Shown here: positions 34,025 through 56,357 of the stretch, one piece after another
Numbering within the stretch: position 1 is the first letter of the stretch
Layout of the letters: the number at the start of each line of letters is the position of its first letter
Source: Dictyostelium discoideum
Lineage: Eukaryota
Direction of reading: 5' to 3'
DNA: 64,000 bases
Assembly: GCA_000004695.1 (NCBI GenBank)
Contig: CM000153.2
Span: 672,001-736,000 of the forward strand
The notes under the pieces: generated by a model
The model's database searches: none
What the model saw: the letters and a program-made list of their open reading frames with translations, nothing else
Told to the model about the DNA's origin: nothing
Translations under genes and position numbers: made by a program

Positions 34025-35206
34025 TTAATTATTAATTGGTTCTTTCCAATGACAAAAATTACAAATTCTTTGAATTTTGTTGAAAGGTGGTAAATATAAA
34101 ATACCAGTACATTTAATTGATTGATTTTTACAAGTGTAATTTTCAATTGTTTTTTCAATTTCTAATGATAAATTTGATAATGGTGGTAGTGTACATCTTT
34201 TACATTTACATTCAAAATAATAAATTTCCTTTAAATGTAAAAGTCTATCATTTTTTGACATTCTAATATCAATATATGAAATTGATAATTCATCACCTTT
34301 TTTAATTGGAATTAAACTATAAATACTTATTGATTGATTTTCTTGTACTCTAACACAATTTGGAAAACAACTATGATTAAAATATGATATACTAATATTA
34401 TCATCTTTATCATTATTATTATTATAGATTGTTTGATTACCATACATACTTAGTCCAAAACATTCATCACTATTTTTCCAAAGTCCAAATGAATTTCTTT
34501 GAGATTTTGCATATAATTCTTCAATAATAACTTTATCAATATTAAAAAAGAAATTATTAAATAATTTTCTTAAATTAAATGATTTATTTTTTATATTCTT
34601 AATTTCATTTAATGATAATGTTTGATTATTATTATCATTATTAAAATCACCAATAAGTTGATTCATTTCAATTAATAATAATTTAAATTTATTATTATTA
34701 TTAGTTGAATATGCAATTTTTGATAAATAATTTATAATCATTCTATTTTCAGTTTGATCATGTAATGTATTTATTTTCGGAGATATGGTTTGGTCATGAT
34801 AATTTGATAAAATTAAACATTCTAATGGTGTATGAATATTTGTTGAGGTTGAATCTTGAAATGATTCTATTGACATTACTTTTTCAAAACATTCATCTGA
34901 ACAAAAATAAATTAATTTACAATTATTACATCTAATTATATAGTTTTTATTAATATCAACTTTAAATTTATTAAATTTTGCATTGTTGATTTCATGAGAA
35001 TTTGAAAAACAATTAAAACAAAATTGGTTAACTAAATGTTTATGAAAACTAAAACACATTGGTGATTGGACTTTTATAATTAATTCACCAAGTTTCATAT
35101 CAATTTTACTTTCAATAAATTTACCACTTTCTAATGTTTCATTAATTTCAATTTTTTTAAAATTAATTTCATTATCATTTTTATTATTATTATTATTATT
35201 TTCCAT
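34025..35206 (-). CDS. SET and MYND domain-containing (SMYD-like) lysine methyltransferase, 393 aa.
   Basis: A MYND-type Cys cluster (CFSFHKHLVNQFCFNCF...CNNCKLIYFCSDECFEKV), the SET signatures NHSCFPNCV and GDELSISY, and a post-SET Cys cluster CKCKRC. Confidence 0.8.
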   Translation of the reverse strand: MENNNNNNKNDNEINFKKIEINETLESGKFIESKIDMKLGELIIKVQSPMCFSFHKHLVNQFCFNCFSNSHEINNAKFNKFKVDINKNYIIRCNNCKLIYFCSDECFEKVMSIESFQDSTSTNIHTPLECLILSNYHDQTISPKINTLHDQTENRMIINYLSKIAYSTNNNNKFKLLLIEMNQLIGDFNNDNNNQTLSLNEIKNIKNKSFNLRKLFNNFFFNIDKVIIEELYAKSQRNSFGLWKNSDECFGLSMYGNQTIYNNNNDKDDNISISYFNHSCFPNCVRVQENQSISIYSLIPIKKGDELSISYIDIRMSKNDRLLHLKEIYYFECKCKRCTLPPLSNLSLEIEKTIENYTCKNQSIKCTGILYLPPFNKIQRICNFCHWKEPINN

Positions 35207-40042: not shown

Positions 40043-41657
40043 TTATTTTTTATTATTTATCTTTTTATGATGATTTTGATTAATTTCAAATAAGAAAGGA
40101 TTTTCAGATAAAAAGTTCTCTTCATATAATTTACAATTTGAATAAGAGTTACCAGTTACATTTACAAAACCATAAGTATCACAACAAGTATTGTATTGTT
40201 CTTTGGCTTGTGGTAAATGAGAGGAAGGAGTGATTTCAGTTGAACCATCATCAAAACGAAGATAAGTTGAGATAGAGAATGGATTAGCTGTGATTTCTAA
40301 AACACGAGCACCATGTTTCCAACCAGTTGGGGGACCATAACCACCATAACCCGATTTTCTACCATAACCTAATTGAACACCATTGTATTCACCAATGAAA
40401 TCATTGTCGTGGTCATGACCACAATGCATTGAAATGATGTCACCCATCTCTTTGAAAGCTGCGAATAAACCAGTGTTTACAGAGAAACAGCAAACACCAG
40501 TATCGTATAAACTACCATTTACAGGATAAAAATTCCACATATCCATGTACTCTGGAATTGGGATGTGCATGAAAGCAATTGCAGGTACTACACGACCATA
40601 CTTTTCACGTAGTCCCATTGAGACTGTACGATACCATTCGATTTGGTCTGGGTAAACACAACCCCAGCCTTCGACACCTTGGCAATTATCATCACCACTA
40701 TCGAAAAAGTAAAGTATGGTTGCAACCTCTCCACTTGAAGGATCAGTAATTGGTAAATAGTAGTTGGTTGCACCTCTAATATCTGATGGACCTCTTTGAG
40801 TTAAACTTAAATTAAAAGTATTATCCAACTCTACGATTTGAACACGATCTAAATCAGCTTCATCATCATGATTACCCAATGTAAATGCCCAACGTATATT
40901 ATGTTTAATCATTGGTTCAACCAAATGAATCCATTTTTCAATGAACCAACCCTCTGTACCATTCCATGCATATCCACTAACTGAATCACCTGTCATTACA
41001 ACTAAATCACCATCTGGTTCTGCTGTTAATACTCCATTTTGAACTTGATTTGATAAATCATCTTTATAATCTGCTTCACCATAATGTAAATCTGTGAATT
41101 GAATTATTTTAAATTTACCATTTGAATTAAATTCTAAATCTCTAATAATTAAAATAATATTAAAAAAAAAAAAATAATAATAATAATAATATTAAAAAAA
41201 AAAAAATAAATAATAATAATAATATTAAAAAATAAAATAATAATTAATTATTTATTTATTTATTTATAATATATGTATTAAATTTTTATTTTTATTATTA
41301 TTTTTTTTTTTTTTTTTTTTTTTGTTTTTTAATTAAAAAATTTATTATAATTGAAAACAAGTTAATATCTGAATTTTATTTATTTTTATTTATATGTCTA
41401 TTTAATTATTAAATAAAAGTGTTATTTCTATTTATTATTATTGTTTTTTAATATTAATATTTTCACATTATAACAATCATCCAACAAATTATTTGTTTAT
41501 TTATAATAATGAGTTATGGTGATGATGATGATGTATTTATTTATTTATTTAAATTTATTTAAATTTATTTATTTAAATTTAAATTTATTTATTTATTTTT
41601 ATATTTATTTAATTTGTTTGATTGGTGGGATGTATTGCTGGTTTTTAAATTTTTTAA

Positions 41658-41696
<39 letters not shown>

Positions 41697-41824
41697 TATG
41701 CTTATTACTTTTGAATAGGTTGAGGGGTATTAGGTCCAAAGATTACTTTGGATAAAACACTTTCATAAAAGATTGTTAAAATTAAAATTATAAAAATAAC
41801 GGTATTGTTTTTTATCTTATTCAT
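40043..41824 (-). CDS. Secreted calcineurin-like metallophosphoesterase (purple-acid-phosphatase/Dcr2-like), 404 aa. Exon 1 is 41824..41709 (signal peptide) and exon 2 is 41141..40043. The intron is about 567 nt and AT-rich.
   Basis: The exon-2 frame extends upstream of the listed Met: ...KDLEFNSNGKFKIIQFTDLHYGE...DGDLVVMTGDSVSG...AFTLGNHDDE...MHIP...GHDHDND. These are metallophosphoesterase motifs (DxH, GDxx, GNH[DE], GHxH). Exon 1 (MNKIKNNTVIFIILILTIFYESVLS...) ends with AA|GTAATA, which matches the phase-2 acceptor TTATTAG|A. Confidence 0.65.
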
Positions 41825-42041
41825 CCTTTTCTTTTTTCAAAAAAAAAAAAATAAAAATAAAATAAAAATATATATATATATGCACAAAAATATAATACCA
41901 AATTGATTTGTTATTACAACAATTAAACTAACCTAATAAAAAAGAAAAAAAAAACAAAAACAAAACAAAATAGATTAACTGTTAATGTGTGAGAAAATAT
42001 ATAAACAAATGGTGAACATTTTTTTTTTTTTTTTTTTGGCC

Positions 42042-42084
<43 letters not shown>

Positions 42085-43235: not shown

Positions 43236-43264
43236 TTTTAATTTTTATTGGGGGGGGAAATTTT

Positions 43265-43303
<39 letters not shown>

Positions 43304-43528
43304 TGGGAAAAGTATGATTCTAAAAATAATAATAATAAAACCACACAAATAATACCACCAAATATAAATATACCTTATAATCCCACAAAACCACCTTTTG
43401 GATATTCAAAAAATGTAAAAAAAAAAAAAAAAATCCAAAGTATAATGATGATAATAATACAACATAATTAATTATTATTTTTTTATAATCATTTTTTTTT
43501 TATTTATGTATTTATTTAATTTTTTTTT

Positions 43529-43581
<53 letters not shown>

Positions 43582-43639
43582 TTTCTTTTTTTTTTTTTTT
43601 TTAAAAAAAAAATATATATTTATATATTTAAAATTGAAT

Positions 43640-44583
43640 TTAATTTTTTTCAAATTCAACAACATTTATTTGACTAATTCCTTTTTTCATTTGATACATT
43701 TTTTCATCGGCAGATTTAATAATTGAAGAAACTTTAGTTTCAGATTTTTTAAAGACAACACCACCATATGAAAAGAAAATTGGAAGAATGGTTGAACTTG
43801 ATTCACCGTCGACAGTGAAGCTACTTGAAGAGACGTTTTTAGTGAATTGTGAAATGAAATGATCAGCATGATCAACATTTTCAACACCTCTTTTAATGAT
43901 TAAAAATTCATCACCACTTAATCGAATTGGAAGAACATTGGAATCCTTTTGTGCTTTGAATTGATTGGAAACATGTTTTAAGACCAAGTCACCGACTTCA
44001 TGACCATAGGTATCATTGATTGATTTGAATTTATTTAAATCCATGAAATAGAGTGCACAAAGATCAGTTTCAGATTTGTTACAAAACTTTTGAATCTTTT
44101 CATCGAGACGATAACGATTTGGTAAACCAGTTAATGGGTCATGAGCCAAAATGTATTTCAATTTCTTTAATTCAGATACTTCTTCACTAATATCCAAAAC
44201 CAATCCTCTAAATACTGATTTATTACATTTTCCAGAGAAACGATATTTCTTGGTACCATCAATTGATTTCAATACGATTCCTTTGGAATTTTGAATATCT
44301 TGTTCATCATTATTACTATTATTATTTAATGCTAATACAAAATCATTTGGATCAATATTTAATGATTCACAAAATGATTGGATACTAAAATATTTATCAG
44401 ATGTTGTTTGTGTTTGTTCAATATTATTATTATTATTATTTGAATTATTATTATTATTATTATTAAATTCTTCGGTAGAATTATTATTATTATTATTTAC
44501 AATTTTAACACTTTTATTTAAAATATTATTATTATTTAAAATATTAATATTATTACTACTACTATTATTATTATTATTACTAC

Positions 44584-44614
<31 letters not shown>

Positions 44615-45001
44615 TATATTATTATTATTATTATTTTCATTATTATTTGTATTTGTATTTGTATTTGTATTTGTATTTGTATTTAAATATTGAGTTAAAT
44701 TATTTGATGAATTTGATTTTGTCAAAACTGGATTGATGGTATTTACAACTTTTTGAGCAAAATTAATTTCTAATACAATAAGAGTTGGTGTATAATTTAA
44801 AATTTGTTTGAAAGTGTTTGTTTCGGATAACATTTTTCTTTCTCTTTGAATAAAAGTATATATTAAAACAACTACAATTAAAAGGAATAACATATTATCT
44901 TTTGTAATATACAAATTACTATTATTATTCATTTGATTATATTGCATATAATTATTATTATAATTATAATTATTATTATTATTATTATTATTTATATAGT
45001 A

Positions 45002-45057
<56 letters not shown>

Positions 45058-45205
45058 CATGATTATATGTAGTGGAATCAATTGTATCATTAACTTTATT
45101 ATTCGAAATTTGTGATTTATATAAAGTTGAAGTTGGATTACCACTATTAATATATGAATAAATATTTAATGTTGATAAAAATAATTCTTGAATTGATTTT
45201 TCCAT
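43640..45205 (-). CDS. dgcA: GGDEF-domain diguanylate cyclase (521 aa), probably Dictyostelium dgcA. It has an N-terminal Asn-rich region and one TM segment.
   Basis: GGDEF-domain motifs are DPLTGLPNRYRLDEKI, ALYFMDLNKFKSINDTYGHEVGDLVLKHV, the active-site loop IRLSGDEFLII (an SGDEF variant of GG[DE]EF), and SADEKMYQMK. D. discoideum is known to make c-di-GMP through a single GGDEF protein, DgcA. Confidence 0.7.
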
Positions 45206-45319
45206 TTTTTTTTATTATTTATTTTTTATTTATTATTATATTTTTTAATATTATTTTTTTTTGTACTTGTTATTTTTTAATATTTTATTATTATTATTAT
45301 TTTTTTTTTTTACTTGTTT

Positions 45320-45358
<39 letters not shown>

Positions 45359-45983
45359 TACTTGTTTATGCTTAAATTGATTGAAAAAAAAAAAAAAAAA
45401 TAAAATAAAATAAAAAATAAATAAAAATATTATTTGGGTTTATTTTTTTGGTTTTTTTTTTTTTTTTTGATATGTATAAAATTGTACAATTTAATTATTA
45501 TATTTAATATTATAATTAGTATTATTATTATTATTTAATTTTAATTTTTTTTTTTTAATTGCTGGTGATTTAGTTGTGATTTAAAAAATTAAATATTATA
45601 ATGTTGACGATTTTTATTTTATAATCAGTGATTGAGTTGGTGTTAGATCTTATATAGATTAAAAACTAATTTTTTTTTTTTTTTATTTTTATTATTATTT
45701 TTATTATTATTATTATTATTATTTTAATCTTATCTATTTAAATGAAAAAAAATTAGTATAAATTGATCAGTTTAAAAAAATAAAATAAAAAGTTGACGAT
45801 AAAATAATTTTATGTTTAAACAAAAAAAAAAAAAAATAAAAAAAAAATAAAATAAAAATTAAAATTTTATTTTAAAAAAAAAAACAAAAAAAAGTGTAAT
45901 GTAAAAAAAAAACAAAACAAACAAATTAATTTAAAAGTTTAATAAAAATAAATGATGATTACTAAATTGAGATTAAATGTGGT

Positions 45984-46016
<33 letters not shown>

Positions 46017-46233
46017 AAATAAATTTAGTTGTTTTGGTGGATATTTTATTTTTAAAATCTTAATCTTTTAAGATCTTTATTGAAAAAGAAATAATTGTTA
46101 ACCACAAATATTGAACAGATTTAAAAAGATAGAATGTATTTGTGTAAAAAATTATGATTGATGATGTTTTTTACTGTTTTTTTTTTTTTTTTTTTATTTA
46201 TGTTTTTCATTTTTTTTTTCATTTTTTTTTTTT

Positions 46234-46271
<38 letters not shown>

Positions 46272-46344
46272 CCGGGAGGGGGGGGATTTAAATTTTTTAT
46301 TTGAACGGAATCAAAACAACCGTTCAAATATCAATCAAAAACCC

Positions 46345-46383
<39 letters not shown>

Positions 46384-47458
46384 TTTTATTTTATTTTTTT
46401 TTTTTTTTATTTGGGTTGCCGATTTATAATAAAAGTGGGCGAAAAAATGGTAAATTACCGTTGCAATTTTACATATTATAAAATACAAAAAAAAAAAAAA
46501 ATGTAATTCAGTATTATTTTTACTATTATTAATTACAAAATTAATAAAATATGTAATTCAATATTATTATTAATTATTATTATATTTAATAATAAAATAT
46601 AAAAAAATGTAAAAAATTCATTTGAAAAAAAAAAAAAATAAATCGGAAAAAGAGAAAAAGATATAAAGGTGAAAATTATTTTTTGGGAGAGTGATTTTTA
46701 AAATATCTTTTTTTTTTTTTTTTTCGTTTTTTTTTTTTTTGTCGTTTTTTTTTTTTTTTTCTTAAAAATAAAATCGAATTTCAAAAAAAAAAAGTGGTGA
46801 ACATGAAAAAAATTGTAAATACTTTTTTTTTTTTTTTTAAACAAATTATTATTGTTTTTTTTTTTTTGTTAACAAGTTATTATTTATTTTTTTTTTTTTT
46901 TGATGGTTGTGATGATGATTAAAATTATAAACTTTTTAGAAATTATAAAACAATTATATATTTAAAAAAACAAACATACACAAAAATGATTGTTTATTGG
47001 AGAGGAGGAGTTTTTATTTTTTATAGTAGTATATATATATTAATATAAATATAATAAAATATAAATATGAATATATATATATATAAATATAACAATATAT
47101 TGTTGGTTTTTTAAATACTTTTTTTGGTTTTTTTTTGTTTTATTTGGGTTTTTAGGTAAATTTAAATTAATGGTTTTTATTTTTTTGTTTTTTTAAAAAT
47201 GATTAATCTTTGGATTTTTATAATTGCAAATGGTTATCAATATAAACCAATATATATAAATGTATATAAATGTATATAATATAATTATCAAAGAATAAAA
47301 GGTGTTCTTTAAGCGACCGATAGTAAATAAAGTGATTATGTTACTCTTATTTTAATGGGGCAAACAGTGTGTGTGAGTGTGAGTGTGAGTGTACATATTA
47401 GATTAATTTATGAAAAAAATTATTTCCATAACCTTTTCATTATTATTTTATATATATT

Positions 47459-47507
<49 letters not shown>

Positions 47508-49651
47508 AAAAGAATGTAGAGAATATAAATTTGTAATTTACAAAAAGGTTTTTTTATTTTTTTTTAAATTTAATTATAATGATTGTTAGGTTGGGTTATT
47601 TATTTAATTCTTTTTTTTTTTTTTTTTTTTATTTTTCAAAAAATAAAATCAAAAATGGAATCCAGAAAAATCTCCCCAACTGAATTAGAGTAAATAAAAA
47701 AAAAAAATCCAATAATAAATGAAACCAAATAAAAACAAAAAAATATTTTAATTAAATTAACTCCACAAAGGTAACGAGCTTAATCTTTTTTTTTTTTTAA
47801 AAATAAAAAAACAAAAAAAAAATATGATGATACTTACTCTTTATTAGTATAGTTTTTATTTAAAAAACTAGATATTTTATGTTTAATCTTGTTTTACTTT
47901 TTTTAAAATAAAGAGTTTAAATAATTCAAACTATTCGGAACTATTTTTATTTTATTTTTAAAAGGTAATAAATATATGTATAGGTATAAAAAAAATAAAA
48001 TAAAATAAAATAAAATAAAATAAAATAAAATAAAATAAAATAAAATAAAATTAAATAAATAAAATAAAATAAAATTTTTTAAAAATAAAAAAAAACTTTT
48101 TTTAATTTAAAAAAAAAAAAAATTTACCATGGCCATTTCCTGACTTTTCATAATTTCAAAACCATTCTCAAACACACATACACACACACACACACATACA
48201 CACATATATGCACATTTATATACATAGACACCATATTTAAATTTAGTTCTATATTTATAACAATAAATTGAATATTAAATTTACAATAAAATTTTACTCG
48301 TTTTAAAATAATTAATTACAATATGAATAGGTACATCATTTTTTGATTTAAATTTACTATTTCCCAATAAATCACCTTTGTTTTTAATTTTATTTGTTTA
48401 AATAGAAACAAAAATAAAATTAAAAAAAATTTGGAAAAATTGTTTGTGCTCTACATATTAATTTCGAGTGTGGGTGTGTTTATGAAAAAATAGAGTGGTA
48501 GTGGTGTGCGTTGTGAGTGAGTGGTATAAAATATTAATATTAAAATTTAAAATTTAAAAGTAGGTAGTTGGTGTGAAATATTTAAAAAAATAAAAAAAAT
48601 ATTTAATCTTTAAACTATTTAATATTTTTTTGAATTAGATCTCTGTGAAAAAGGCAAGATTAATGTGGGTGTGGTAATGACATTTAATAATAATAATTGG
48701 TGTAAGTATTAATAAAATTAATACCTCCTCTTTGTGTAAACACATACTTAAAAATTCTCAAAATAAATTAAATAACCATATATATTTTTATATGTTTCCA
48801 CATAAAAAAAAATTATAATTTATTTATAAAATAAATAATAATTTAAAAATTTAAAAATTAATTATTAATTACTATAACTACCTACTATTATTATTATTAT
48901 TATTATTATTATTTATTATTATTACTATTATATTCTGGTATAAAAAAATTTAAAACCTAGATATAAATTAAAATATTAAATAAGGAATTGATTATTATAA
49001 ATTTTGGGGGGTGGGGTTATTTGATCTTTTTATTTAGCTTTTAATCGACTACCCTTTTATATTTTAAAATTTCATTATTTTTTCAATAATTGTTTTTTAA
49101 TCTTACATTTTTGGTTTTTTATTATTTTTTGGAAAAAATAAAACAAAAGAAAAACTAAAAATATAATATATTACCCCCAATATTTATTCGATAAAATATA
49201 TAAAAAAAAATAGATGACACTATCGATTTATTATTTTATATATTTTTATAAAGAAAAGAAGTATTTGAATAATATCTTGGGAATTATTATTAATTACAAT
49301 AATTGGTAAAATGGACGATTCATTAAATTTAAAATTAGATAATAATAATTAATGATACCCATCAATCTTTAATTTTCGATTTTTCGTTTTATCATAAAGC
49401 AAAACAAAAATAAAAATAAAAAATAAAAATAAAAACTAAAAACAAAACAAACAACAATAACAATAAATTAAGAAATAAAAAAAAGAAATAAATACAAACC
49501 CATAATAATTATATCAATAATAACAACCAATATATATAATTTTAATAGAGAATACAAAAAATATATTCTTACATTCCATTTGGTTTTTTTCCCGATCTAT
49601 AGGTTTAATTCTAAAATATTTTAGTTAACACAATAATAAAAATCTATAAAC

Positions 49652-49688
<37 letters not shown>

Positions 49689-49899
49689 AAAAAAAAAAAA
49701 AAAATAATTAAATCTGATTTTATCAAAGGTTATTAAATAAAAACAAATTTATTTTTTATTATTATTATTGTTAAAAAGATTAGAAAAATGAAAAAATGGT
49801 AAAAAGATTAAAAAAAAAAAAATATGATGTAACATTTTTTCCAATGGGTGACATTATAGATGTTAAGTTTTCCATTATAATTTTCAATTCCATTTTATT

Positions 49900-49965
49900 G
49901 TGTTTGTGTGTGTGTGTCTGTGTGTCTGTGTGTCTGTGTGTTTGTGTGTGTGTGTGTTACAAGTT
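49900..49965. repeat. (TGTGTGTC)n / GT-rich microsatellite.
   Basis: Visible in the sequence. The overlapping 76-aa ORF is an artefact. Confidence 0.8.
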
Positions 49966-50603
49966 AATCAATTTTTTACGTATTCCAAATATAGAAAAAA
50001 AAAAAAAAAAAAAAAAAAAGTTTTAATTTAAAATAAAAAAAGAATAAAATCTTACAAATATGGTAGATTTTAATATTATTTTTTTTTAAATTAATTATTT
50101 GTAAAAGCTTTGAATTTTTTTTTAATTATTTAATTTTTTTTTCAATTAATTATTTTGTAACTACTAAATTTTTAATTTTTCCAAAATTGTAAATGTGAAA
50201 TTAAAAAAAAAAAAAAACAAAAAAATTTTTACTAAAGATTTTACAATTAATGGTGTATGATTGATATTTTAAAAAATTAAAAATATTTTTAAAACCCAAA
50301 TTAAGTAATTCCAATGAGATAATTTATGAAAATTCTACGTAAGGTAATTTGGTCGGCTAATTTTTTATTTTTTAATAATTTTTTTTTTTTTTTTAAAAAA
50401 ACATTTTTATTTTTTTAAGTTAATTATTATTTAAAAATAACACAACAATAATAATGTGGTAATTTTCAACAATAAACACAATTTTTTAATAAATAAAAAA
50501 TTTTTAAATAAAAAATAATTAAAAAAATTTCCAATTTTAAATAATCTAAAAACGACATTATGTCATCCTTTATATTTGAATGAAAATTTGACAATGATTA
50601 ATT

Positions 50604-50642
<39 letters not shown>

Positions 50643-52417
50643 TAAAAAAACAATAGATTATTAAAAAAAAAAATTTTAATATATTTAAATTAAGAATTGA
50701 TATTATTAATAATAAAAAAAAACTGATTGGGTACAATTTTATTTTTTAGAATTGATCCATAAAAAATAAAATTAAATCACGTGGTTTTAGATTTATATAA
50801 AACTAAAATAATAATTTCCACGTGATTTAGAAAAATAAAAATAAAAAAAATAAAATTTGGCCTTAAAAATAAAAAATCGAATAAAAAATAATTTAAATAA
50901 AATTGGCATCGAATCATAAATCCAAACGATTTAAAAGTAAAATTCTGGCGCCATCAACTTTTTACAAATGGATCATGTGAAAAAAAAAAAAAAAAAAAAA
51001 TTTGTGGTTTTTATAAAAAATAATAACATCATTATTATTTATCTATTTTTATATAAAATAATTTATTTTATTTAAAAAAAAAAAAAAAAATAATAATATT
51101 AAGATCTTCAAATTTTTTTCATTTTCTAATTTTTATTTTTATTTTTATTTTCATTTTTATTTTTATTTTTTTTTTTTTTGGCTACCTCTCTCTTTGGTAT
51201 TATTTTATTTTATTTATTTTATTTTCTTTTTAAATTCAATTATTTTTAAAAATTCAAGTCAAATTAAATATAAAAATGGTTAAAAAAAACAATTATTTTT
51301 TTTTTATTGGGTAAAAAAAAAAAAAAAAATTAAAGATTATTAATTGGTTTGTACAAGTTTTTAGTTTTTTTAATTTTGGGAAGATTTTACAATTTTATTG
51401 TAAGTAATGAGTTTATAGAATTTATAAAAAAAACTTCACAATTCATAACATTAAAAAATAATTAACTTTGTAAAAAAAAAAAAAAAAAAAAAAAAACATA
51501 GAATTATAAAAATAATAATTTGTAATAATATATCCTGAAAATTAAAAAAATTTACCCAAATGGGTATAATTTGATGTGATTAATTGATGGCTCAGGAAAA
51601 TAATTGATATTAAAGTGGAAATAAAAAAAATTGAATTTGTAGATTTTGTTTTTTTTTTTTTTTTTTAGTTTTAATTGGTTGGATTGATAATATTTTTCAA
51701 ATAAAATATTATAATCTATATAAAGAAGTTATAAGGGGTGTCCAAAACACAGCATTTTTTTATTATTTCTATTATTAAAATATTTTAAGATAAAAATATT
51801 TTTATCTTTTTTTTTTTTTTTTTTAAACATTTTCAAAAAAAAAAAATAATAAATTTTTTAGATTATAATAATAGAAATAAAAAAACAGTAAAAATTAGGA
51901 ACATTATAATAAATGATTGTTTTTATTTTATTGTTTTTAGTTTGATAAATGAGCGGTTATTGCTTATCTTTCTTTGATAAAAATAAAATTAATAATATTA
52001 AAATATTGGTTACCTGATATCTGTATTATATATAGAAAAAAAATAATAAAAAAATTTAATAAATAAATTAATTAATTTAGATTTTTTTTTTTTTTAACAA
52101 TTTCAAAATCCAGATTAACTAATCGGCATAAACACACAAACACATTTCTAAAATTACATCAACATCAAAAAAAAAAAATTAAATAAAAAAAAAATAAAAA
52201 AAAAATTGGTGTGCAAGTGAAAGGTTATGGAAATAAGTAAGATAAAAAGGTTTTTTTGTTTAAAAAAAAAAAAATATTAAAGATTTATTCTTTTGTTTTT
52301 TTTTTTTTTTTATTTAATTTTTTTTTTTTTTTTGGAAAATATGTAATGTATACATATTGGTTTTATTTGAATATTAATCATAATAGTTTATAAATTTTTG
52401 AAATTTTTTTTATAAAA

Positions 52418-52472
<55 letters not shown>

Positions 52473-52619
52473 TTTTTTTTTTTTTTTTTTTTTTTTTTAT
52501 TTTTTTAAAAAAATTATTTACAATTGGATAAATATATATGAATATATATTTTTAAAAAAAAAAGATGGGAAATGTTATTATATTACTAATATATGAATTA
52601 TGTTGAAAATAAATTATTT

Positions 52620-52830
52620 TTAATCAAACTGTTCAACATCTTTTGGAACCATCTTTTTGATTTTTTTTTGAGCCTTATGGATATTTGCTGCCCCTTCAGT
52701 TTCAATTGAACTTAATCCATGTGTCTTTTGTTTTTCAGCTTGTTTGATTATTTCATTAACTCTTTCATCAGGAAGATCTTGTTTCTTTATTTTATCTAAT
52801 TTTTCATTACTTTTATAATATCTTTTAAAG

Positions 52831-52867
<37 letters not shown>

Positions 52868-52960
52868 AGTTTACAATGATTATTTTTTTTAAAAAAATAA
52901 AAATAATAATTACCCTCCAGTTGAAACAGATCTAACAGTAGTTCCTCTCAATGAGAGCAT
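52620..52960 (-). CDS. Small 82-aa protein with a predicted mitochondrial presequence. Exons 52960..52914 and 52821..52620.
   Basis: The product is MLSLRGTTVRSVSTGG|YYKSNEKLDKIKKQDLPDERVNEIIKQAEKQKTHGLSSIETEGAANIHKAQKKIKKMVPKDVEQFD. A GTAATT donor and CTTTAAAAG acceptor join in phase (GG|A = Gly). The N-terminus is Arg/Ser/Thr-rich and amphipathic. Confidence 0.5.
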
Positions 52961-53650
52961 AAAATTCTTTGTTGTTGTTTTATTCTAATAAAAAGTAATT
53001 TAAAAAAAAAAAAAAAGAAATTATGTTAATAATAATAATATATAAAATAAAAAAAAGAATAATTCTTTAATTAGTAAATCAACCAATGATTATTATTTTA
53101 AAATTGTTTTTTTTTTTTTTTTGATGTTATTATTATAATATTAATTATAATAATTAAATTAACTAACTTACTAATTGTCTAAACATATTAAAATTTTTGA
53201 AATTATTAATTATAAAAAAAAAAGTTATATATTTCTATAAATGTATTTTTTAATTTTTGTTTATTGATAAAAATGAAGTGAAAAAAAAAAAAATAAAAAT
53301 AAAAAATAAAAATAATAAATGGTGTTGGAATTCGGTGTGTGAAAAAAAAAAAAAAAAAAAAAAAAAACCAAAATAAAAAAAATAAAAATAAATTTTTAAT
53401 ATAAAAAAATAAAAAAAAATATTATTATAATTTTTTTTGATATAAAGATTTGAAGGGGATAATCATTGTTTTTTTCTATTTCCTTCTCACAAAATTTTTT
53501 TGGATATTTTTTTAATTTTATTTTTTTTTATTTTTATTTTTATTTTTTTTTTAAAAATTTTTTTTTTTATTTGAAAAATAGAGATCTTAGTATCATTGAC
53601 ATTTTAGGATATTTTTTTTGTGCCCAATATAGTTATGAATATAAATTCAC

Positions 53651-53681
<31 letters not shown>

Positions 53682-54005
53682 ATTTACCCCAAGTTTGATT
53701 AAAAGGTTATATTGATATTTTAATTTTGAACATTGTTATAAAAATGATTTTTTTTAAAATAAAAAAAAATAAACAATTAATGTGAACAAGCATATTTTTT
53801 ATTATTATTATTATTATTATTATTTTTGTTTTTCATTGATGGTTTTTTTTTATTTTGACTTCTTTTTTTGGTATTTTATTATTTAATTAATTTTATTATT
53901 TAATTAATTTTTTTATAAAGATTTCTTTTTTTATTTTTATTTTTTTTATTTTTATTTTTTATTTGTTGGTATTTACATTTTTTTTACTTTTTAAAGTAAT
54001 TAATT

Positions 54006-54042
<37 letters not shown>

Positions 54043-54059
54043 TTTAAATTAATTTTTTT

Positions 54060-55118: not shown

Positions 55119-56207
55119 TTAAATTTTTAAATTATTTACTAAATTTTTACAATATTTTTCTAAACGATCTGCGTTATCATAATAAGGTGAATTTTCACCA
55201 TTAAATTCTCTACAATTATTACACATTCTTTTAAGATCAGCTAAAAAGATATTTTTAGTGATATAATAATTTCCAGTTGCTAAACGATCAGAGATCATTT
55301 GAAGGTCGACAGGATCTTTGACAGTTGTATAATAGGTTGGTACTTCTTCAATTGAAACTGGTTGAAGAAAAGGCCATGAATCATCATGATTTTTAATACT
55401 TTGTAATACAACTGCCAATTGTTGTTGAAGTGAATTTATTTGTTGTTGTTGTTGATCAACATTTCCAACATTATTAATCCAACCAGCTTCTAATATACCA
55501 GGTATCTTTTCAATGGGTATGCGTCTTTGACCATGATTAAAACATTGTAAACCTGAATAAACTAAATGTGAGGTACTAATAGTACGAATCTTTTCATTCA
55601 ATGCATTTCTCTGCGCTTTTACCATAGTCGGTATATCTAAATAGGTTACATTTGGGTGTACAACACACTCCATTAATGAACCACCATCATACTCTTGGAT
55701 GAAACCTTTCCATTTCTCTTTTAGCAATGTTATATCATGAGTGAATCCTTGTTTTTGAAAATATTCAATTGCAAAGTTATCTGCAAACGTTAGGAAATGG
55801 TAAATTCCAACTTTTCTATTATGTTCTTTTAAATGAGTCATTAGGAATGAACCATAGCCTTTCACTTGTTCACTGCTTGTGATTGCACAAAATGCAATCT
55901 CTATGAAACCTTGTTGTTGAAATGGTCTAAAACAAATACCACCAATTACATTGTTATTTTTAATAATCAATAATGAATGATGAAATCTATCAAACATTAA
56001 TCTAACAATATATTCTCTTGGCATCTTTGGTAATTGTTTAGAGAATACATTCTTTAAATTCATTAATAATTCTAAATTCTTTGAACTACTATCATTTGTT
56101 ATAACTTCAAATCTTAATATACCTCTTTCTTTCTCTTCTTTTGCTGTTATACCTCTTGAATTATCAATTTGTAAACCATCTTCTGGTCCTAATAATTGTT
56201 GTGGTGG

Positions 56208-56244
<37 letters not shown>

Positions 56245-56357
56245 ATTTGTGGTGGATGTTGATTCACTATATCATTATTACCTATATTTAAATTATAATT
56301 ATTATTATTATTATTATTGTTATTATCTTGTAATAATGTTGGTTGTTGTGTTTCCAT
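55119..56357 (-). CDS. gcn5: GCN5-type histone acetyltransferase (GNAT domain plus C-terminal bromodomain), 412 aa.
   Basis: The HAT core is IVRLMFDRFHHSLLIIKNNNVIGGICFRPFQQQGFIEIAFCAITSSEQVKGYGSFLMTHLKEH. The bromodomain is WPFLQPVSIEEVPTYYTTVKDPVDLQMISDRL...YYITKNIFLADLKRMCNNCREFNGENSPYY. There is an N-terminal poly-N/Q tract. Confidence 0.85.

Follow-up and report, generated by a model that had tools for sequence, protein, structure and literature searches.

Which gene does a GGDEF-coding open reading frame (ORF) in the genome of the eukaryote Dictyostelium discoideum represent, is its product a working type of diguanylate cyclase, and what occupies the region between its membrane helix and its catalytic domain? 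The ORF lies on the minus strand of a 64,000-nucleotide stretch of D. discoideum DNA (assembly GCA_000004695.1, contig CM000153.2, positions 672,001 to 736,000), referred to here as the window, in which it runs uninterrupted from ATG to TAA at positions 43640-45205 and encodes 521 amino acids (aa). We assign it, with a probability of roughly 90%, to dgcA (DDB_G0283453), an already known D. discoideum gene of bacterial origin that encodes a membrane-anchored diguanylate cyclase. A preliminary description, made from the letters of the window, had expected the same gene. At the G+C content of about 19% found here, the stop fraction among random codons is approximately 0.097, and from base composition an open frame of 521 codons would occur by chance with a probability of about 1e-23. 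The frame is not a product of chance; the E-values of its domain are independent of this probability.

The identification rests on length, primers and a second assembly. The annotated DDB_G0283453 protein has 521 aa (Gloeckner et al., 2016, supplementary table; PMC4931340), exactly the length of the ORF product, and this agreement is telling because a quarter of the protein is length-variable asparagine (Asn) repeat. Three primers and a 0.35 kb amplicon were published for the D. discoideum DgcA gene by Song et al. (2015; PMC4325836). All three primers have exact and unique matches in the window; dgcKO1rAS and dgcKO2f-AS together span 357 bp, and the 5' end of DgcA-1549-AS (43657) falls on nucleotide 1549 of the coding sequence (CDS), as the primer name states. 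Length, primers, amplicon size and CDS coordinate agree in pointing to dgcA. In assembly GCA_054883475.1, the dgcA CDS is the same at 1566 of 1566 nucleotides on a chromosome-scale contig of 5.58 Mb, and the protein is identical. The flanks of the gene are 98.97% identical between the two assemblies, with most differences in homopolymer length, and these differences therefore indicate two independent sequences of the same species. No difference from the known DgcA (DDB_G0283453; Chen and Schaap, 2012) was detected in length, primer matches or domain content.

Two very large protein searches placed dictyostelid GGDEF proteins exclusively as nearest relatives, including P. violaceum CYY_002456, H. 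album PPL_07541, T. lacteum DLAC_01150, C. fasciculata DFA_05717 and several EukProt models, and generic bacterial GGDEF proteins scored far lower. Neither a D. discoideum nor a D. purpureum protein was among the matches of these searches; the D. purpureum cell is also empty in a published dgcA orthologue table (PMC4931340, supplementary file 2). The orthologues share 42-64% identity over the aligned parts and the same order of transmembrane helix, juxtamembrane region, linker and GGDEF domain. They differ in size (272-438 aa) and lack both long Asn-rich insertions (aa 50-100 and 165-276), which occur in D. discoideum only. Several of the dictyostelid gene models appear faulty. P0006 is a 655-aa model joining a G-alpha protein, the GGDEF part and a dual-specificity phosphatase, P0007 and P0043 are without internal pieces, and P0002 has a gap in mid sensor region. 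Merging or mis-splicing in the predictions is the probable cause.

The complete GGDEF domain with the signature I-R-L-S-G-D-E-F, reported in the preliminary description, was recovered by Pfam and NCBIfam profiles. Pfam PF00990 matches aa 354-508 with E=2.6e-30 (105.7 bits, cut-off 23.8), and NCBIfam TIGR00254 matches with E=1.4e-29 (102.9 bits, cut-off 37.4). Several NCBIfam diguanylate cyclase equivalogs match over the domain part only, far under their full-length cut-offs. PDB sequence matches to the domain are diguanylate cyclases, with E-values down to 4.6e-21, and Foldseek retrieved PleD, WspR, DgcZ and DosC with E-values of 1e-9 to 1e-12. To the level of sequence, the locus belongs to the GGDEF diguanylate cyclase family, and the first glycine of the motif is the sole defining feature that it lacks.

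Catalytic residues were compared with those of PleD, whose sequence was taken from the PDB, with numbering verified on PDB 9g85, and aligned with the window protein, four orthologues, DgcR and PA0575 (Table 1). The roles given for D389, N397, D406 and K507 are those of their equivalents in PleD structures. The catalytic acidic residues, on which the preliminary description had made its reading depend, are present: positions 3-5 of GG(D/E)EF are D432, E433 and F434, aligned to E370, E371 and F372 of PleD. At the first position, S430 (codon AGT) replaces PleD G368. The preliminary description had singled out this serine as noteworthy; the substitution is real, but it is not unusual in its own family, as RLSGDEF occurs without variation in each of the ten dictyostelid DgcA orthologues identified. 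Two bacterial SGDEF enzymes, ECA3270 of Pectobacterium and MbaA of V. cholerae, synthesise cyclic di-GMP (c-di-GMP) and are membrane-associated, as is predicted for DgcA (PMC3974145; PMC8079147). Because the serine is fixed in the dictyostelid orthologues and active bacterial SGDEF enzymes exist, it is not a sign of degeneracy but a family trait of a working enzyme, compatible with GGDEF family membership. MbaA differs from DgcA in an additional EAL-type domain and a periplasmic sensor, and no specific relationship of ECA3270 or MbaA with DgcA was found beyond the shared domain.

The allosteric I-site, defined as RxxD five residues upstream of GG(D/E)EF, had been left in the preliminary description as a point to be checked. 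It is absent: D421-S-N-V424 stands at its position, and RxxD occurs there in none of the ten dictyostelid DgcA sequences. PleD R390 aligns to Q453 and is not conserved. DgcA thus has the GGDEF fold of PleD, WspR, DgcZ and DgcR together with the equivalents of D327, N335, D344, R366, E370 (as Asp), E371 and K442, and it differs from these canonical bacterial cyclases in the serine for the first glycine, in the missing RxxD and in the non-conserved R390 and R446. Canonical bacterial cyclases carry receiver or zinc-binding input domains, whereas the input part of DgcA is a predicted transmembrane helix followed by a predicted PAS-like region. Their product is an intracellular messenger and that of DgcA is a secreted intercellular signal.

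A predicted transmembrane helix and the Asn-rich linkers, as described ahead of the GGDEF domain, were both found. The Kyte-Doolittle 19-residue maximum of 1.87 lies at aa 105-119, a helix at 98-137 in the AlphaFold2 (AF2) model spans this hydrophobic segment, and the transmembrane helix is kept in most orthologues. Asn accounts for 24.4% of all residues and is clustered in aa 50-100 (69%) and aa 165-276 (54%). The second of these tracts is specific to D. discoideum, with a gap in nine of nine other orthologues. It contains a perfect hexamer array of 6.8 copies, which reads TGTATT/TATTTG on the plus strand and AAT-ACA on the coding strand and encodes the (Asn-Thr)n run NTNTNTNTNTNTN at aa 175-187, confirming that the (TGTATT)n repeat noted earlier is part of the CDS.

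Between membrane helix and GGDEF domain lies a region that the orthologues conserve, with the pattern TFKxIL..TPTLIxLEINF..VKT..NP .. FCE .. KKYRFSGK.D...F.G...DISEE. Invariant residues across taxon groups are I135, E146, I147, V154, F278, C279 and G325. All ten dictyostelid DgcA sequences keep the pair F278-C279 (44369-44374) unchanged; it lies among the helices of the predicted PAS-like region and is a candidate functional or cofactor-related site. An AF2 model of the compact P. violaceum segment, built from a six-sequence alignment, reached a mean predicted local distance difference test score (pLDDT) of 73.7 and a predicted template modelling score (pTM) of 0.64, with the order helix, two strands, disordered loop, helices, three strands and C-terminal helix. 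Nearly all of the top 50 Foldseek matches to this segment are PAS or LOV domains. In the full-length D. discoideum model, the same elements lie on both sides of the disordered insertion (142-148 and 153-156 before it, 272-338 and the helix 342-353 after it), the C-terminal part consisting of helices at 275-298 and strands at 310-313, 320-328 and 331-338. Block mean pLDDT is mostly 64-87 over the PAS-like elements and about 55 at 301-310, and the GGDEF domain is modelled confidently. The two independent AF2 runs gave the same beta-beta-helices-beta-beta-beta topology.

In the PDB, the structure that matches the full-length model best is PA0861 (RbdA, 5xgb), a PAS-GGDEF-EAL protein, over 239 columns. 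Alignment by hhalign with bacterial PAS-GGDEF proteins gave a probability of 86%, over the last 39 columns only, which cover the last strands and the linker, and a BLASTP alignment to a bacterial PAS-GGDEF protein starts at DISEED/DITEQD. PA0861 and the LOV-GGDEF protein 8c05 share with DgcA the predicted order of PAS-like fold, helical linker ending in DxLTGLxNR and GGDEF domain. They differ from it in that DgcA has no Pfam PAS match, its similarity is limited to the last strands and the linker, and no known cofactor motif was recognised in it. The bacterial metagenome protein P0134, which combines a transmembrane segment, an uncharacterised region, an AGDEF-type GGDEF domain and an EAL domain, was considered as a donor-type relative on the basis of a whole-profile HMMER alignment; it was rejected, as its upstream region aligned by hhalign with a probability of 19%.

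Three other explanations of the locus were weighed. The great majority of GGDEF genes are bacterial, and such genes commonly contaminate eukaryote assemblies (PMC4931340), so the assembly could contain the ORF as a bacterial contaminant or a recent insertion and not as a resident eukaryotic gene. Its G+C content of 21% is close to the 19% of the window, Asn is encoded by AAT 124 times and by AAC 3 times, long poly-Asn tracts run through it, its start context (AAAAAAAA-ATG) is A-rich and its stop is TAA. The identical CDS within the 5.58 Mb contig of GCA_054883475.1, the orthologues of the same architecture across Dictyostelia and the documented transcription and function of the gene (PMC10559540; PMC4686194; PMC4931340) also speak against foreign DNA. 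Contamination is excluded on composition, codon usage, Asn tracts and chromosomal context, and we give it a negligible probability. The SGDEF domain might instead be a degenerate, catalytically dead GGDEF that acts as a c-di-GMP receptor or scaffold, like PopA, PelD and FimX, since degeneracy affects roughly one GGDEF domain in four, and several degenerate ones act as receptors (PMC3974145). Besides the replaced glycine, two positions weigh on this side and against a working cyclase: PleD R446 is S511 in D. discoideum and K-K in orthologues, and the position of PleD D329, the second Asp of the DxD-FK segment of the GGDEF domain, is Asn in D. discoideum (N391) and in eight of the nine orthologues that cover the column. 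It is Asp in all three bacterial enzymes aligned and in two dictyostelid sequences. However, all known metal-, guanine- and phosphate-binding residues save R446 are present, receptor-type GGDEF domains bind c-di-GMP at an RxxD that DgcA does not have, and other SGDEF enzymes are active. The dgcA-null mutant is moreover rescued by c-di-GMP and has lost the tip-enriched signal (PMC4686194; PMC10399225; PMC4325836). A dead domain is therefore very improbable, slightly less so than contamination.

The remaining alternative concerns the juxtamembrane region alone. Residues 129-343 could be a mere spacer or dimerisation stalk with neither PAS fold nor sensing, in an enzyme that is constitutive and controlled by transcription only. 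Several results favour such a spacer and weigh against a PAS domain. Searched with Pfam PAS models, neither the window protein (max E 0.1) nor any of five orthologues (max E 10) gave a match. In the PDB, a sensor-region profile retrieved no related sequence apart from a chance glycosyltransferase match (E=1.2), and a hidden Markov model of the sensor region scored at most 10 bits on bacterial PAS-GGDEF proteins. In the Foldseek list described above, TM-scores are 0.3-0.4 and a single match falls under E=1e-3; these scores are modest, so the PAS assignment depends on a medium-confidence model from six sequences. A low-complexity insertion of 110 residues is tolerated inside the region in D. discoideum, the orthologue model P0002 does without its middle, and dgcA expression is itself developmentally regulated (PMC10559540; PMC4686194). 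On the other hand, the region is conserved across taxon groups with its invariant residues, its topology recurs in both AF2 runs, and c-di-GMP is restricted to the tip while dgcA expression extends over all of the prestalk region, which suggests post-transcriptional control (PMC4686194; PMC10399225). We regard a plain spacer as a serious contender that is nevertheless somewhat doubtful. As for the structure alone, a PAS-like fold is predicted to be the most likely one for this region, and we lean towards it with modest confidence. The fuller proposal, that DgcA has a cryptic, sequence-divergent PAS-like sensor between membrane helix and GGDEF domain, conserved across Dictyostelia and split in D. 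discoideum by some 110 residues of disordered Asn-rich loop, is tentative and on present evidence rather unlikely. Within a limited literature set, no publication was found that connects Dictyostelium DgcA with a PAS domain.

The function of dgcA is documented in the literature. Dictyostelid genomes have single diguanylate cyclase genes (PMC4686194), and dgcA is considered a genuine lateral transfer from bacteria (PMC4931340). D. discoideum dgcA-null cells stop at the slug stage without culmination (PMC4686194; PMC4325836). Their rescue succeeds with 10% wild-type cells or with c-di-GMP, and fails with c-di-AMP, guanosine triphosphate (GTP), guanosine monophosphate (GMP) or cyclic GMP (PMC4686194). 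As the preliminary description had stated, c-di-GMP is a stalk inducer: stalk genes are induced by it, and dgcA expression is found in the prestalk region (PMC4686194). It is a secreted signal that triggers stalk differentiation, with an effect mediated by adenylate cyclase A and protein kinase A (PMC10559540; PMC10399225). The tip-enriched c-di-GMP signal seen in the wild type by Förster resonance energy transfer is lost in the dgcA mutant (PMC10399225). This signal is confined to the tip and dgcA expression is wider, for which the authors considered possible post-translational regulation of DgcA (PMC10399225), as did a 2015 review (PMC4686194). DgcA is the enzyme credited with c-di-GMP synthesis, and the dgcA-null phenotypes tie it to that synthesis.

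A mechanism can be proposed in which the single transmembrane helix (aa 105-119) would anchor DgcA with the catalytic part in the cytosol, a placement of the C-terminal part suggested by its need for GTP and by the basic residues after the helix. Chen and Schaap (2012) reportedly observed GTP-dependent synthesis of c-di-GMP by DgcA. Two GGDEF domains, each with one GTP, would pair to form c-di-GMP as in bacterial enzymes, so that DgcA would be active as a homodimer, and the PAS-like juxtamembrane module and the linker helix (aa 342-353) may set the geometry of this pairing. Asn-rich tracts would be disordered loops tolerated at surface positions, and the D. discoideum loop of about 110 residues may accordingly sit in a surface loop of the PAS-like fold and leave that fold intact. 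With no I-site, c-di-GMP output would be free of allosteric feedback, fitting a secreted morphogen made in amounts sufficient to act between cells. Membrane topology, dimerisation and the lack of product inhibition are points that we infer, which tempers the proposal.

Table 1. Features of the dgcA locus, in window coordinates, with PleD equivalents and published primers
Feature	Position	Strand	Basis
dgcA CDS, single exon, 521 codons and TAA stop	43640..45205	-	ORF list; 3 published primers inside
N-terminal region, aa 1-104, predicted disordered	44894..45205	-	pLDDT <50 for aa 1-99; little conserved among orthologues
Asn-rich tract, aa 50-100	44906-45058	-	69% Asn
Predicted single transmembrane helix, aa 105-119 (MLFLLIVVVLIYTFI), then basic QRERK	44849..44893	-	hydropathy, AF2
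Predicted PAS-like fold, N-terminal part, aa 129-163: helix and strands 142-148, 153-156	44717..44821	-	
Asn-rich low-complexity insertion, aa 165-276, predicted disordered	44378..44713	-	gapped in nine other orthologues; pLDDT <50 for aa 163-269
Hexamer array, period 6, 6.8 copies, 100% matches	44644-44684	-	Tandem Repeats Finder
Predicted PAS-like fold, C-terminal part, aa 277-343, ending DISEE	44177..44377	-	AF2, hhalign, invariant F278-C279
Predicted linker helix, aa 342-353 (EVSELKKLKYIL), PAS-like part to GGDEF	44147..44182	-	AF2; BLASTP to bacterial PAS-GGDEF protein
GGDEF (diguanylate cyclase) domain, aa 354-508	43682..44146	-	Pfam PF00990, PDB sequence matches, Foldseek
Allosteric I-site position, D421-S-N-V424, no RxxD	43934..43945	-	aligned with PleD R359-A-I-D362 and DgcR RKSD (6zxm)
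Motif I-R-L-S-G-D-E-F, aa 427-434	43904-43927	-	translation
Active-site motif S430-G431-D432-E433-F434	43904..43918	-	aligned to PleD G368-F372; RLSGDEF in ten dictyostelid orthologues
D389, metal binding			PleD D327
N391	44033-44035		PleD D329
N397, D406, guanine binding			PleD N335, D344
R428, conserved			PleD R366
S430-G431-D432-E433-F434, active-site loop			PleD G368-G369-E370-E371-F372
K507, phosphate binding			PleD K442
S511, not conserved			PleD R446
Primer dgcKO1rAS	44721-44746	-	exact unique match
Primer dgcKO2f-AS	44390-44419	+	exact unique match
Primer DgcA-1549-AS	43657-43688	+	exact unique match

The genomic setting of dgcA was also examined. Neighbouring ORFs, all on the minus strand (55119-56357, 34025-35206 and about 40091-41872), encode a GCN5-like protein with GNAT acetyltransferase and bromodomain, a SET-domain protein and a metallophosphatase, the gene of the last lying immediately downstream of dgcA. 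These are ordinary eukaryotic genes. No second GGDEF-coding stretch was found within the window, and no tRNA and no Rfam family were detected in it. The 8.8 kb upstream of dgcA (45206-54059) contain no ORF of at least 80 aa and have a G+C content of 10-18%, in a window that is ORF-dense elsewhere; GCA_054883475.1 likewise has no gene called in the corresponding 5 kb upstream. One possible reading of this long gene-free sequence is an extended promoter of dgcA; another is that annotation is simply lacking there. Directly downstream of the dgcA stop, at 43492-43602, 111 nt rich in T (poly-A when read on the coding strand) form a run whose length differs by 20 nt between the assemblies. Differences between the window and GCA_054883475.1 are unevenly distributed and cluster in short G/C-containing islands beside long homopolymers (46263-46345, 43250-43308 and 42035-42049); C-to-A and G-to-T changes are numerous among them, and small indels also occur. 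They look more like assembly or polishing differences than ordinary polymorphism.

To our knowledge, no diguanylate cyclase gene other than dgcA is established in eukaryotes, and dgcA is a textbook example of multicellular development making use of a gene from bacteria. Finding this known gene at the locus adds no new biology. A usable by-product is a hypothesis for how DgcA activity stays confined to the tip, built on the predicted PAS-like module and on the lack of a product-inhibition site in all orthologues. If the PAS-like module responds to a ligand or to redox state, this could account for c-di-GMP in the tip only despite prestalk-wide dgcA expression; lacking an I-site, DgcA would then be free of feedback once switched on.

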